Assembly: GCF_001677475.2 (NCBI RefSeq) | Contig: NZ_CP015229.1 | Length of the DNA: 64,000 nucleotides | Reading direction: 5' to 3' (one strand) | Source of the DNA: Escherichia coli | Lineage (GTDB): Bacteria > Pseudomonadota > Gammaproteobacteria > Enterobacterales > Enterobacteriaceae | In this document: one piece after another, positions 7,269-37,159 of the stretch | How the letters are laid out: each line of letters begins with the position of its first letter | How positions within the stretch are numbered: the first letter of the stretch is position 1 | Translations under genes and position numbers: made by a program | Notes under the pieces: generated by a model | Told to the model about the DNA's origin: nothing | Database searches by the model: none | Seen by the model: only the letters and a program-made list of their open reading frames with translations

Positions 7269-10061
<2,793 letters not shown>

Positions 10062-26835: not shown

Positions 26836-27031
26836 TTCGCCCTCCTCAGATAAGTTTTACTCTAAATAATTCGAGTTGCAGGAAGGCGACGAGTGAATGA
26901 ATCCCCTGGAGCTTACTAAAGTAAGTGACTGGGGTGAGTGAACGTGGTCGCAGCACATGCAACTTGAAGTATGACGAGTGTATTACCACTATTGAAGCTC
27001 TTAATACCCAAAGTAGCAACTTTGCTTGCAC

Positions 27032-30125: not shown

Positions 30126-33100
30126 ATGGCAGATAATCCAAACCTTTCATCGCCCCTGCCGGACGTGTTTTCACCGGCAACCCGCGACTGGTTTCTTCGC
30201 GCCTTTAAACAGCCGACCGCTGTCCAGTCGCAAACCTGGCATGTGGCGGCGCGAGGCGAACATGCGCTGGTGATTGCACCGACTGGCTCCGGGAAAACGC
30301 TGGCAGCATTTCTCTACGCCCTCGATCAGCTCTTCCGCGAAGGCGGCGAAGATACCCGCGAGGCGCATAAACGTAAAACCTCACGCATCCTCTATATTTC
30401 ACCGATAAAAGCCCTTGGCACCGACGTTCAGCGCAACTTGCAGATCCCGTTACAGGGGATTGCCGATGAACGGCGGCGGCGCGGCGAAACGGAAGTCAAT
30501 CTTCGCGTGGGGATCCGTACTGGCGATACGCCTGCACAGGAACGCAGCAAACTCACCCGTAATCCGCCGGATATTCTGATCACCACACCCGAATCACTCT
30601 ATCTGATGCTGACCTCCCGCGCGCGCGAAACGCTACGCGGCGTCGAAACGGTAATTATTGATGAAGTCCACGCGGTAGCAGGCAGTAAACGTGGTGCGCA
30701 TCTGGCGTTAAGTCTGGAGCGGCTCGATGCGCTGCTCCACACCTCAGCACAGCGAATTGGCCTTTCTGCCACTGTGCGTTCAGCCAGCGATGTGGCAGCA
30801 TTTCTTGGTGGCGATCGCCCGGTTACGGTAGTCAACCCGCCCGCAATGCGCCATCCGCAGATACGGATTGTCGTACCGGTCGCCAATATGGATGATGTCT
30901 CATCGGTCGCCAGCGGCACCGGCGAAGACAGCCATGCCGGCCGAGAAGGCTCCATCTGGCCATATATTGAAACGGGTATCCTTGATGAAGTGTTGCGCCA
31001 TCGCTCGACCATTGTCTTTACTAATTCGCGGGGGCTGGCGGAAAAACTGACGGCACGATTAAATGAGCTTTACGCCGCACGCTTACAGCGTTCCCCGTCT
31101 ATCGCCGTTGATGCGGCCCATTTCGAGTCGACCTCTGGCGCAACCTCTAACCGTGTACAAAGTAGCGACGTTTTTATTGCCCGCTCACACCACGGCTCCG
31201 TCTCTAAAGAACAACGAGCAATCACCGAACAGGCGCTGAAATCGGGTGAATTACGCTGCGTGGTCGCAACCTCCAGTCTCGAACTGGGGATTGATATGGG
31301 CGCAGTGGATCTGGTGATTCAGGTGGCAACGCCGCTTTCTGTTGCCAGTGGGTTACAACGCATTGGACGTGCCGGACACCAGGTAGGTGGTATCTCCAAA
31401 GGGCTTTTTTTTCCCCGAACCCGGCGTGACTTAGTCGATTCCGCAGTCATTGTAGAGTGTATGTTTGCAGGCAGGCTGGAAAACCTGACACCGCCGCATA
31501 ATCCACTCGACGTCCTTGCGCAGCAAACCGTTGCCGCCGCGGCCATGGATGCATTACAGGTAGACGAATGGTACTCCCGCGTACGCCGTGCCGCACCGTG
31601 GAAAGATCTGCCAAGACGTGTTTTTGACGCCACGCTGGATATGCTTTCCGGGCGCTATCCCTCTGGCGATTTTTCTGCTTTTCGCCCCAAACTGGTCTGG
31701 AACAGGGAGACCGGGATATTGACCGCCCGACCCGGCGCTCAGCTGTTGGCGGTTACCAGCGGTGGCACCATTCCGGATCGTGGCATGTATAGCGTGTTAT
31801 TACCCGAAGGTGAAGAACAGGCCGGTTCGCGGCGGGTGGGTGAACTGGATGAGGAGATGGTATATGAGTCGCGGGTGAACGACATTATCACTCTCGGCGC
31901 TACCTCATGGCGGATCCAGCAAATCACCCGCGATCAGGTGATTGTGACTCCTGCTCCGGGTCGTTCTGCCCGGCTCCCCTTCTGGCGTGGTGAAGGTAAC
32001 GGACGTCCGGCTGAATTAGGCGAGATGATCGGCGATTTTCTTCATTTGCTGGCGGATGGCGCGTTCTTTTCCGGGACTATTCCCCCGTGGCTGGCAGAAG
32101 AAAATACGATCGCCAATATTCAGGGATTGATTGAGGAGCAGCGCAACGCGACGGGCATCGTGCCGGGGAGTCGCCATCTGGTCCTCGAGCGGTGCCGTGA
32201 TGAAATTGGCGACTGGCGTATTATTTTGCACTCTCCCTATGGAAGACGGGTGCATGAACCCTGGGCGCTGGCGATTGCCGGGCGAATACATGCCCTATGG
32301 GGCGCTGACGCGTCTGTGGTCGCCAGTGATGACGGCATTGTTGCGCGCATTCCTGACACTGATGGTAAATTGCCCGACGCCGCGATTTTTTTGTTTGAAC
32401 CAGAAAAGTTGCTGCAAATTGTCCGCGAGGCGGTAGGCAGTTCGGCACTTTTCGCCGCCCGTTTTCGCGAATGCGCCGCGCGGGCATTATTAATGCCGGG
32501 GCGCACGCCGGGCCATCGCACCCCGCTTTGGCAACAACGGCTGCGCGCCAGTCAGTTGCTGGAAATCGCTCAGGGATATCCGGATTTTCCGGTCATTCTC
32601 GAAACCCTACGCGAATGTCTGCAAGATGTTTATGATCTTCCCGCACTGGAACGTTTGATGCGTCGCCTGAACGGTGGCGAAATTCAAATATCCGATGTAA
32701 CGACTACTACGCCCTCGCCTTTCGCCACAAGTTTATTGTTCGGCTATGTCGCGGAATTTATGTACCAGAGCGACGCCCCGCTGGCAGAGCGCCGGGCATC
32801 CGTACTGTCGCTGGACAGCGAGTTACTGCGCAATCTACTCGGACAGGTCGATCCGGGGGAATTACTCGACCCGCAGGTCATTCGCCAGGTGGAAGAAGAG
32901 TTGCAACGACTGGCTCCTGGCAGAAGAGCGAAAGGTGAAGAAGGATTGTTCGACCTGCTGCGCGAACTGGGGCCAATGACCGTTGAAGACCTGGCGCAAC
33001 GGCATACAGGCAGCAGTGAAGAGATTACGTCGTATCTGGAAAATCTTCTTGCAGTAAAACGAATCTTCCCGACGATGATTAGCGGGCAGGAGCGTCTTGC

Positions 33101-33257
33101 CTGTATGGATGATGCCGCCAGGCTGCGCGATGCCCTCGGCGTACGACTACCAGAGTCACTGCCAGAGATTTATTTGCACCGAGTCAGTTACCCGCTTCGC
33201 GACCTCTTTCTGCGCTATCTCCGGGCTCATGCTCTGGTCACGTCTGAACAACTGGCT
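30126..33257 (+). pseudogene. lhr: lhr 5' fragment (codons 1-1044 of ATP-dependent helicase Lhr), truncated by IS insertion
   Basis: Helicase Walker A APTGSGKT and DEVH box present; the reading frame continues 58 codons into the IS before a stop at 33431. Confidence 0.85.
33250..33257. repeat. Target-site duplication AACTGGCT (left copy)
   Basis: Identical 8-mer at 35667-35674; removing the IS plus one copy restores an uninterrupted lhr frame. Confidence 0.8.
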
Positions 33258-33321
33258 ATTAGACGTCAACTAGTTTTGCCGACTCGCGCCAACTATACTG
33301 GCCGCACCCTTCAGGGCGACA

Positions 33322-34077
33322 TCAAGTCGCGCTTGTTACTGCCTTCGCTGTCTTTTTCCTGTAGCTTTCCCCTTTCAGTTCGAACATATATCCGTGATGG
33401 ATCAGCCTGTCTGCCGCAGCCACCGCCATAGTCTCATCCACGAAGATGCTGCCCCACATGCTGAACGGATGGTTACTGGTTATCACCAGGCTCCCACGTT
33501 CATAGCGATGCGCTATTAACTCGAACAGCACACCCGTTTCGGCACTATCGCGTTTGACATAGCCAAGATCATCCACCACTATCACCCGGTAGCGATCCAG
33601 TTTCAGTAGCAGCTCATTCAGTTTCAACTGAGCTCTGGCTTTACGTAGTTCCTGCAACAGCTCTCCTGCGCTGTAGAACCGGGCCCGGTAGCCCTGACCT
33701 ACTACGCCATCCACGATCGCTGCCGCCAGATGGCTTTTCCCCAACCCGCTGGCTCCGAACAGCAGAACGTTTTCTCCTGCATCAACCCAGTCTGTCGTTT
33801 CACAGAGTTGCCGGAACTGAGCTCCATTCAGTTCCGGCACCTGACTGAAGTCGTATTCGCTCAGCGTTTTGGCAACTGGCAACCGGGCCTCCTTTTTATA
33901 ACGACGCAGTTTTTCACTCTCGCGCCACAGGAGTTCTTCATTGCATAGCGTCAGAAGATAGCGCGATGGTGTCCAGCCTTCTGCCAGCGCTCGTTTTTCC
34001 AGAGCGTGCCATTCAGCTCCAACTCGTGTCAGGCGTAGTTTACGCAGGCTATGTTCAAGGTGATGGATATTGCTCAC
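33322..34077 (-). CDS. istB: IS21-family helper ATPase IstB
   Basis: 251 aa; Walker A GASGLGKSHLA and Walker B VIVVDDLGY; overlaps istA by 4 nt. Confidence 0.88.
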   Translation of the reverse strand: MSNIHHLEHSLRKLRLTRVGAEWHALEKRALAEGWTPSRYLLTLCNEELLWRESEKLRRYKKEARLPVAKTLSEYDFSQVPELNGAQFRQLCETTDWVDAGENVLLFGASGLGKSHLAAAIVDGVVGQGYRARFYSAGELLQELRKARAQLKLNELLLKLDRYRVIVVDDLGYVKRDSAETGVLFELIAHRYERGSLVITSNHPFSMWGSIFVDETMAVAAADRLIHHGYMFELKGESYRKKTAKAVTSAT

Positions 34078-35573
34078 TGCGAACCTCCCTTGCCACGCAG
34101 TAGTTGCTCATAACTGCTCAGGTTATGCTGTATCACATTGACTACCGGCAACGCCTTTTCTTTTATACCCAGGAAGCGCATCAGCCGGTGCAGATCCACG
34201 TTTCCCGGGGTATTCAGCATCTGCTCCATACCTTTTGCCACGACTGAGATATCGTCGTATCCTGCAGCCAGTTTCAGGGCATGTACCATCAGCCTTCCTG
34301 CCATATCGGGCTCCAGATGATTACATAAGCGACGCCACAGCCTCCGCCATTCATCGTCCGGCAGGATGTCATTTCTCAGCGTTGCATGGCAGAACGCACC
34401 GGGCTTTTTTGCCAGACTGTCGATCACATGTCGGAAGTCGATACGACGGGCCCGCGTCTTCCCTTTTTCTGGTCTGACGCGAGGGCAGCTCATGACCTCG
34501 CTGCTGCCAACGTAACAGCTCAGACGATCGTCCCATAACCTGACCCGTAACAGTTGACCTACAAGCCGGGAAGGTACGCTGTAGACGACGTGCTTCACAT
34601 TGATGGTACTGCTGCGACTAACCCTCACAGTCAGCTCATCATAGTCAGCACTGCGACGAAGCGGCAGCGGTTTCAGATGAAGACGTTCTTCCTTGACCAG
34701 ATCCTGATTGTTACGGTTGTGCCGCATAACCTGCTGAGTGATGAAGGCCTGATATTCTTCTATGGTGCTGAAGTCGTTACTGCCCCGCAGTATCAGCGCC
34801 TGACAGATACGCCTTTTCAGATGTCCGTGGGCACTTTCAACCGAGCCATTTTCGTGGCCCCGACCGGCATTATTGTGTACGCCCTGCATTCCGTAGTGCT
34901 GACAGAGAGTAGCATAACGCTCAGTCAGCTCGCGGCGTCCATCTTCGCCCTGTTGTTTCCATGCTGCCCTCAGGCTGTCCGTTTTATGTTCTACCGGCAC
35001 TCCGCCCAGTTGTCCGAGGGCTTCCTGCAGGCCTTCAGCCAGAGCAGAGAAGCTCTCACCACCCAGAACAACCCGCATCCAGCTCCAGTGGCTCCATTCC
35101 AGACGGAAGTGATACAACTTATGCGCCAACAACTTACCGGCGATGGTGACAACTACACCTTTCAGTTCAGTAAAGTCCGACAGGCCTCGCAGGCCGGGCT
35201 GATGTTGCTGGCGGAACATGACCTCCTGCTCTGTACCATACTGTAGTTTCCATTCGCGAACCCGCCGTTGCATTGTTCTTCGAAGGCTGTTGGGGTACTG
35301 GCCGGGATATTTATCCTGTAGCATCTCCAGTAGAGTTGTTGGTGTCAGAGCCGGCCTCTCTTTCAACAGAGGAACAAGCATGCTGTCCCACACAGCTTCC
35401 AGAGGATCTTTGCGTGTGCGCCAGTGCCGAACACTGTTTTTTGCCCACTCTCCTTTTTCGATCCGACGACCAGAACGGACTGAGATACCAGCCTTCATGG
35501 CCGAGATATGCTGAGTTATACCTTTCTTACGCTGAGTCATATAGTAACTGACCTGAGAAGTATTGAGCGTCAC
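34074..35573 (-). CDS. istA: IS21-family transposase IstA
   Basis: 499 aa; N-terminal HTH region and central DDE integrase-like domain; gene order istA then istB typical of IS21 family. Confidence 0.85.
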   Translation of the reverse strand: MTLNTSQVSYYMTQRKKGITQHISAMKAGISVRSGRRIEKGEWAKNSVRHWRTRKDPLEAVWDSMLVPLLKERPALTPTTLLEMLQDKYPGQYPNSLRRTMQRRVREWKLQYGTEQEVMFRQQHQPGLRGLSDFTELKGVVVTIAGKLLAHKLYHFRLEWSHWSWMRVVLGGESFSALAEGLQEALGQLGGVPVEHKTDSLRAAWKQQGEDGRRELTERYATLCQHYGMQGVHNNAGRGHENGSVESAHGHLKRRICQALILRGSNDFSTIEEYQAFITQQVMRHNRNNQDLVKEERLHLKPLPLRRSADYDELTVRVSRSSTINVKHVVYSVPSRLVGQLLRVRLWDDRLSCYVGSSEVMSCPRVRPEKGKTRARRIDFRHVIDSLAKKPGAFCHATLRNDILPDDEWRRLWRRLCNHLEPDMAGRLMVHALKLAAGYDDISVVAKGMEQMLNTPGNVDLHRLMRFLGIKEKALPVVNVIQHNLSSYEQLLRGKGGSQ

Positions 35574-35666
35574 GCCATTTCCTGTTGGATCATGTAAATG
35601 ACACTCAGGTTACAAAACCGGCCAGAATAATCGGCGCCAGGCGGACTGAGTTATTGTCGTCTCATA

Positions 35667-35674
35667 AACTGGCT
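35667..35674. repeat. Target-site duplication AACTGGCT (right copy)
   Basis: Identical to 33250-33257. Confidence 0.8.
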
Positions 35675-37159
35675 CATGAGTTTAGTCTCGGTATTGCCAT
35701 TGTCGAAGAGCAACTTCAGCAACTGCGCGAACAAGGGCTGGTGATGAATCTGCAACAAGACATCTGGGTGAGCGATGAAGTATTTCGTCGTCTGCGTTTG
35801 CGCTCGCTGCATGCCGCCAGAGAAGCGACGCGTCCCGTTGCGGCCACGACCTATGCGCGATTGCTGCTGGAACGTCAGGGCGTATTACCCGCCACCGATG
35901 GTAGCCCGGCACTCTTTGCCTCAACATCGCCAGGCGTTTATGAGGGCGTGGATGGCGTGATGCGGGTGATCGAACAGCTTGCTGGCGTTGGTTTACCCGC
36001 CTCACTCTGGGAAAGCCAGATCCTGCCTGCCCGCGTACGCGACTATTCGCCAGAAATGCTCGATGAATTACTGGCAACCGGTGCGGTTATCTGGTCGGGG
36101 CAAAAAAAGCTGGGTGAAGATGACGGTCTGGTGGCACTGCATCTACAGGAATATGCCGCAGAATCGTTCACTCCCGCCGAAGCAGATCAGGCGAATCGTT
36201 CGGCGCTGCAGCAAGCGATAATCGCTGTTCTGGCTGACGGAGGAGCCTGGTTTGCACAACAAATCAGCCAACGGATACGCGATAAAATCGGCGAATCGGT
36301 TGATCCCTCGGCTCTGCAAGAGGCGTTATGGGCGCTGGTCTGGCAAGGCGTCATTACCAGCGACATTTGGGCACCGTTACGCGCCCTCACCCGTAGCAGT
36401 TTCAACGCACGCACCTCAACTCGCCGCAGTCACCGGACTCGTCGTGGGCGTCCTGTCTATGCACAACCCGTCTCGCCGCGGGTATTTTACAACACACCAA
36501 ATCTGGCTGGACGCTGGTCGTTATTGCAGGTGGAGCCACTAAACGATACCGAAAGGATGCTGGCGCTGGCGGAAAATATGCTCGACCGCTACGGCATCAT
36601 CAGTCGTCAGGCGGTGATAGCCGAAAATATCCCTGGTGGGTTTCCATCGATGCAAACGCTTTGTCGAAGTATGGAAGACTCCGGGCGAATTATGCGAGGT
36701 CGTTTTGTAGAAGGTCTGGGTGGCGCGCAATTCGCTGAACGTCTGACTATTGACCGATTGCGCGATCTGGCGACACAAGCCACGCAAACGCGCCACTATA
36801 CACCAGTGGCGCTCTCTGCCAACGATCCGGCTAATGCATGGGGAAATCTTCTGCCCTGGCCTGCACATCCGGCAACGCTGATACCAACGCGTCGGGCGGG
36901 TGCGCTGGTGGTCGTTTCTGGCGGCAAATTGTTACTCTATCTGGCGCAAGGTGGCAAAAAAATGCTGGTCTGGCAGGAAAAAGAGGAATTACTCGCTCCA
37001 GAGATTTTCCACGCGCTGACTACCGCACTGCGTCGCGAACCACGGCTGCGCTTTACGCTAACAGAAGTGAATGACCTACCGGTCCGGCAAACGCCGATGT
37101 TTACGCTGCTGCGTGAGGCGGGATTTTCAAGTTCGCCACAAGGGCTGGATTGGGGATAG
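35675..37159 (+). pseudogene. lhr: lhr 3' fragment (codons 1045-1538)
   Basis: Frame resumes with HEFSLGIAIVEE; the two fragments sum to 1538 codons, the length I recall for intact Lhr. Confidence 0.85.

Follow-up and report, generated by a model that had tools for sequence, protein, structure and literature searches.

A copy of the IS21-family element ISEc10 interrupts lhr in an Escherichia coli chromosome

We analyzed a 64,000-nucleotide stretch of an Escherichia coli chromosome (contig NZ_CP015229.1; hereafter, the window), in which one copy of the insertion sequence ISEc10 has almost certainly transposed into codon 1044 of the chromosomal gene lhr, in the orientation opposite to that of lhr. 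The 8-mer AACTGGCT was found at both 33250-33257 and 35667-35674, flanking the insert, as the original prediction had reported. When positions 30126-33257 were joined to positions 35675-37159, the resulting 4617 nt formed one open reading frame of 1538 codons plus a stop, confirming that the element precisely interrupts lhr and that its excision together with one repeat copy restores a continuous frame. The restored product was 99.1% identical to annotated E. coli Lhr and differed at 14 residues from the Lhr of E. coli SCU-105 (WP_001310034.1). Once restored, lhr is a full-length orthologue that lies between rnt and grxD, its conserved position, and the gene order is that of SCU-105. The probability that a 7- or 8-mer repeat abuts both ends by chance was at most 6e-5 (6e-5 for a 7-mer). 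The restored lhr frame and the abutting repeat therefore settle the call of an insertion, far beyond chance.

Between the two copies of the 8-mer there were only two long open reading frames, both on the minus strand, at 34074-35573 (499 aa) and 33322-34077 (251 aa). The features of the locus, numbered by position in the window, are as follows.

30126..33256, plus strand: 5' part of lhr, codons 1-1043 and the first 2 nt of codon 1044
30126..33431, plus strand: predicted truncated frame of 1101 aa, made up of Lhr 1-1044 and 57 IS-derived residues
33250..33256, no strand: left copy of the target-site duplication, AACTGGC
33257..35666, minus strand: ISEc10 (IS21 family), 2410 bp, genes opposite to lhr
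33257..33304, no strand: terminal inverted repeat of the istB-distal (right) IS end, beginning TATTAGACG
33264..33269, minus strand: outward-facing -35-like hexamer TTGACG, 7 nt from the right tip of the IS
33322..34077, minus strand: istB, 251 aa, AAA+ helper ATPase
34074..35573, minus strand: istA, 499 aa, IS21-family transposase
35619..35666, no strand: terminal inverted repeat of the istA-proximal (left) IS end, ending CGTCTCATA
35667..35673, no strand: right copy of the target-site duplication, AACTGGC
35674..37159, plus strand: 3' part of lhr, last nt of codon 1044 to codon 1538 and the stop

Element ends and length of the target duplication

The original prediction described an element of 2409 bp (33258-35666), flanked by an 8-bp target duplication, AACTGGCT. 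The 8-mer is indeed identical on both sides, and this locus alone cannot separate a duplication of 7 bp from one of 8 bp. The boundaries were therefore set by reading the ends of 24 other copies of the element. In the orientation of the window, all 24 copies began TATTAGACG and ended CGTCTCATA. The tips were 5'-TA...TA-3' in every copy, with 3' ends of ...CGTCTCATA and ...CGTCTAATA; in the copy in lhr, the two terminal dinucleotides lie at 33257-33258 and 35665-35666. Target duplications at 19 independent other sites measured 5 bp (n = 4), 6 bp (n = 13) or 7 bp (n = 2), and a duplication of 8 bp was found at none of them. A clear 7-bp duplication was present at locus L018, where GTCACGC was followed by A. 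Further, 13 of these 19 sites had a base other than T after the right-hand duplication.

Because the same starting T was present in 24 of 24 copies, and because the base following the duplication was mostly a different one, the T at 33257 is the terminal base of the element and travels with it. Judged from these sequence comparisons, the element occupies 33257-35666 and is 2410 bp long, the target duplication is the 7-bp sequence AACTGGC, and the match extends to an eighth base only because the target happens to carry a T there. Both the length of 2409 bp and the 8-bp duplication are thus corrected, and we consider it very unlikely that the earlier boundaries are the true ones. Excision yields the same lhr under the 7-bp and the 8-bp reading.

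Target-site duplications in the IS21 family range from 4 to 8 bp, and the 7-bp duplication of ISEc10 in lhr falls within this range. The TA tips and the variable stagger of 5-7 bp might reflect variation in the recognition of the ends by IstA.

A sequence like the IS tip CGTCTCATA occupies the 9 nt that precede the duplication (CGTCTGAAC). When CGTCTGAAC was included, positions 33241-33257 and 35658-35674 formed an apparent repeat of 17 nt with 82% identity. This resemblance is probably due to chance. The selection of the target by its likeness to the IS end was rejected, as the other insertion sites had no such similarity.

Identity, structure and transposition of the element

A megablast search of 5,426 complete E. 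coli genomes, a collection that does not include Shigella, detected the element in 898 genomes, in 525 of which it was full-length or nearly so. Close copies in complete E. coli genomes were 98.5-99.9% identical to the element, and in every case NCBI labelled them "IS21-like element ISEc10 family", in none as IS100. Strain CFT073 holds the element at seven places, with full-length copies of 98.5% nucleotide identity; relative to the CFT073 proteins, IstB had 1 and IstA 4 amino acid differences. Further, six public copies from prophage, plasmid and chromosomal contexts were 100% identical over all 2410 nt, and 145 blocks of a large public collection contained the exact IstA protein. ISEc10 is an IS21-family element (PMC8764528), and its de novo insertion next to lpp was observed in CFT073 under drug selection (PMC7482066). 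The original prediction had left the element nameless, noting that its IstB did not match that of IS100. The distinction from IS100 stands, and a name can now be supplied: on the basis of the NCBI labels and the published description (PMC8764528), we identify the insert as ISEc10.

The copies of ISEc10 in CFT073, in other strains and on plasmids have the same length, ends and gene layout as the copy in lhr, with duplications of 5-7 bp. Compared with these, the copy in lhr differs only in its insertion site (lhr codon 1044) and in a few substitutions. Three E. coli strains (WP2-S18-ESBL-08, GF153 and PCP07014; loci L005, L016 and L017) share a site at which a copy of ISEc10 adjoins another IS21-like istB; the istB of this copy is frameshifted, and the copy lacks a target duplication. 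This arrangement may be a nested or rearranged cluster of insertion sequences. Outside E. coli, at loci L009 and L011, the end pattern of ISEc10 was found on a 669-bp contig of an assembly labelled Haemophilus sputorum, and a scaffold labelled as the alphaproteobacterium Martelella alba carried a full copy that was 89.5% identical and had a 6-bp duplication. These matches could reflect either a wide host range or contamination.

The element carries only istA and istB, and its assignment to the IS21 family in the original prediction was upheld by profile scores above the curated NCBIfam cut-offs. IstA scored 226.4 bits against NF033546 (IS21-family transposase; cut-off, 160 bits), covering profile positions 2-293 of 294, and IstB scored 266.7 bits against NF038214 (IS21-like helper ATPase; cut-off, 200 bits). 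IstB also matched Pfam PF01695 (IstB_IS21) at 1e-61. The Walker motifs that had been ascribed to IstB were located at residues 108-115 (Walker A, GASGLGKS) and 167-170 (Walker B, VVDD). In IstA, a candidate DDE triad was assigned by motif only to D133, D199 and E241 (spacing, 66 and 42). The sole Pfam detection in IstA was a Mu-type beta-barrel at residues 311-366, with no match to an rve or HTH domain; a precomputed domain match to PF27155 (Y4rL_C) was present in the longer C-terminal extension. A phmmer search of IstA against solved structures returned no matching chain. The TGA stop of istA and the GTG start of istB overlap by 4 nt (GTGA), with GGGAGG located 6 nt upstream. The terminal inverted repeats are imperfect, with 48-nt arms that are 71% complementary and lie at the exact ends of the element.

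Like ISEc10, IS5376 from Geobacillus stearothermophilus possesses an istA-istB pair; IS5376 serves as the structural model for transposition in the IS21 family. Residues 11-243 of IstB aligned to the solved structures of IS5376 IstB (8Q3W, 8Q4D and 5BQ5) at approximately 4e-45, and the Walker motifs were conserved. In the IstA of both elements, a DDE region, putative in ISEc10, is followed by a Mu-type beta-barrel at the corresponding place, and the triad of IS5376 IstA consists of D124, D187 and E233 (PMC10122671). However, IstA is 499 aa long in ISEc10 and about 400 aa long in IS5376, and the C-terminal extension is longer in ISEc10. The tips differ as well: a 3'-CA terminal dinucleotide is described as the signature for IS5376 (PMC10122671), whereas the tips of ISEc10 are TA. 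CA is typical of the family but not strictly defining.

The founding member of the family, IS21 of plasmid R68.45, resembles ISEc10 in its two overlapping genes and in inverted repeats with repeated sites; it is about 2.1 kb long, with an IstA of 390 aa and a duplication of 4-5 bp. IS100 of Yersinia and E. coli shares the istA-istB layout and the family with ISEc10, and is about 1.95 kb long with an IstA of 340 aa.

The anatomy of the element is what was observed here, and the following steps of transposition are drawn from work on IS21 and IS5376 (PMC10122671, PMC11208146). By analogy with these elements, a tetramer of the DDE transposase IstA would bind the repeated sites in both ends and pair them. 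Decamers of the AAA+ ATPase IstB would assemble on the target DNA with ATP and bend it; IstB would then recruit IstA and activate strand transfer. Two strand transfers staggered by 7 bp, followed by gap repair, would generate the duplication. A pair of abutted ends may serve as the donor form. When the ends of ISEc10 were abutted in silico with a spacer of 1-3 bp, the -35 hexamer near the right tip could pair with a -10 hexamer in the left end, giving a modelled promoter, TTGACG-N16-18-GACAAT, in front of istA. A promoter formed in this way at the junction is known for IS21, and the modelled junction of ISEc10 resembles it. A scan of viral contigs detected no tandem or circular junction of abutted ends.

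According to this model, TTGACG near the right tip could make a promoter only with abutted ends or with a suitable flank. A hybrid promoter directed outward into lhr was rejected by inspection of the sequence, as no hexamer resembling a -10 box lies at a suitable distance in the flank. A promoter scan of the region gave 2 sites, which is at the level of chance (1.8 expected).

Occurrence and age of the insertion

Queries spanning the junctions of lhr and the element returned no record with at least 80% cover among the 5,426 complete E. coli genomes, and none that covered both sides. Further, a 29-nt junction pattern had no match in metagenome contigs, and the 1101-aa fusion frame had no identical counterpart among recorded proteins. 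The IS-end pattern matched 7 loci in GTDB species representatives, one of which was a full-length copy and none of which was in lhr. The rebuilt empty site was intact in 4,380 of the 5,426 complete genomes. In the comparison of lhr across E. coli genomes that the original prediction had proposed, no complete genome with the site had the element in lhr.

The window was colinear with the genome of SCU-105 from malI to sufD, save for the insert, a segment of about 120 bp and noise in the length of a repeat in rsxC. Copies of insertion sequences are a classic cause of misassembly, and the junction was present in no other public sequence searched, as would be the case if an IS copy had been misplaced inside lhr during repeat resolution. 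However, a misjoin would not give a perfect 7-bp duplication with both junctions at the conserved tips of the element, and the remainder of the window follows the reference genome. An assembly artefact is therefore extremely improbable, and we regard the insertion in lhr as real.

The segment of about 120 bp (26861-26980), which is ERIC-like and absent from SCU-105, was the only other indel of more than 100 bp in the window. The claim that the insertion sequence is the only accessory DNA in the window therefore nearly holds, this repeat being the exception relative to SCU-105. An ERIC/IRU-like core, AATCCCCTGGAGCTTACTAAAGTAAGTGACTGGGGTGAGTGA, lies within the segment, which folds as a long hairpin (-49.6 kcal/mol). 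The tandem repeats in rsxC, at 9495-10012, have a period of 96 bp and appeared as staggered self-matches against the reference.

Compared with SCU-105, there were 38 synonymous and 5 nonsynonymous differences in lhr upstream of the insertion, and 22 synonymous and 9 nonsynonymous differences downstream. Neither half of lhr contained a stop or a frameshift, and both istA and istB were intact. There was no clear sign of decay in the pattern of substitutions in the halves of lhr. The insertion thus looks recent, given the perfect duplication, the intact IS genes, the undamaged halves of lhr and the public copies that are 100% identical, and in this respect the original prediction was supported.

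Over stretches of 7-28 kb, the identity of the chromosomal backbone to the 5,426 complete genomes did not exceed 98.6-98.8%. Based on this sequence divergence, we consider the host to be a member of a lineage poorly sampled among complete E. coli genomes, or a Shigella. Unsampled relatives of a host at this distance (at most 98.8% identity) could share the insertion, which would then be an old one, fixed in the lineage. The identity of the IS copy to copies in unrelated contexts, at 100%, stands against such an age, as do the intact IS genes and the freedom of both halves of lhr from stops and frameshifts. An old insertion is accordingly unlikely, and a recent one is preferred. The unique junction of lhr and ISEc10 could serve as a marker of the lineage.

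Consequences for Lhr and the host

E. coli Lhr consists of Lhr-Core (aa 1-897) and Lhr-CTD (aa 898-1538), and Asp-1536 is required for the uracil-DNA glycosylase activity of the latter (PMC10953399). Lhr-CTD is described in another report as nucleating oligomerisation (PMC8053096). The 5' part of lhr in the window spans the entire Lhr-Core helicase and runs on into the C-terminal domain. The 3' part, with most of Lhr-CTD including the catalytic Asp-1536, is separated from the promoter and the start codon. The sole product of lhr that is now possible is predicted to be Lhr 1-1044 with an IS-derived tail of 57 aa. This product would keep the helicase core and would lack most of the glycosylase and oligomerisation domain, including Asp-1536, so that the function of the C-terminal domain is predicted to be gone. 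Polar effects are unlikely, since the next gene, grxD, is convergent.

Approximately 1,044 of the 5,426 complete genomes (about 19%) were without nearly all of lhr. In these genomes, all that was left of lhr between rnt and grxD was about 100 bp at its 5' end and 126 bp at its 3' end, as exemplified by strain Ec55 (locus L024, 3900-4128). This deletion is a large, lineage-level loss of a DNA-repair gene. Because lhr is lost in about 19% of genomes, its loss is common and tolerated, and a strong phenotype of a knockout is unlikely. Further, lhr encodes a non-essential DNA-repair helicase and is dispensable, and the insertion is therefore probably neutral or nearly so. It is unlikely that the interrupted gene is a natural separation-of-function allele maintained by selection in this poorly sampled lineage, whereby a stable Lhr of 1101 aa would retain the helicase/translocase core but neither glycosylase activity nor oligomerisation.

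The expected lhr phenotype is at most a mild sensitivity to oxidative stress (PMC10953399). The finding is of little importance beyond the annotation of the strain, for which the element is now named and its boundaries and the length of the duplication are fixed. We conclude that the presence of ISEc10 in lhr is a real, recent and ordinary event, involving a known, active element and novel only in its insertion site, and that the host strain is an lhr mutant, predicted to lack the C-terminal glycosylase domain of Lhr.
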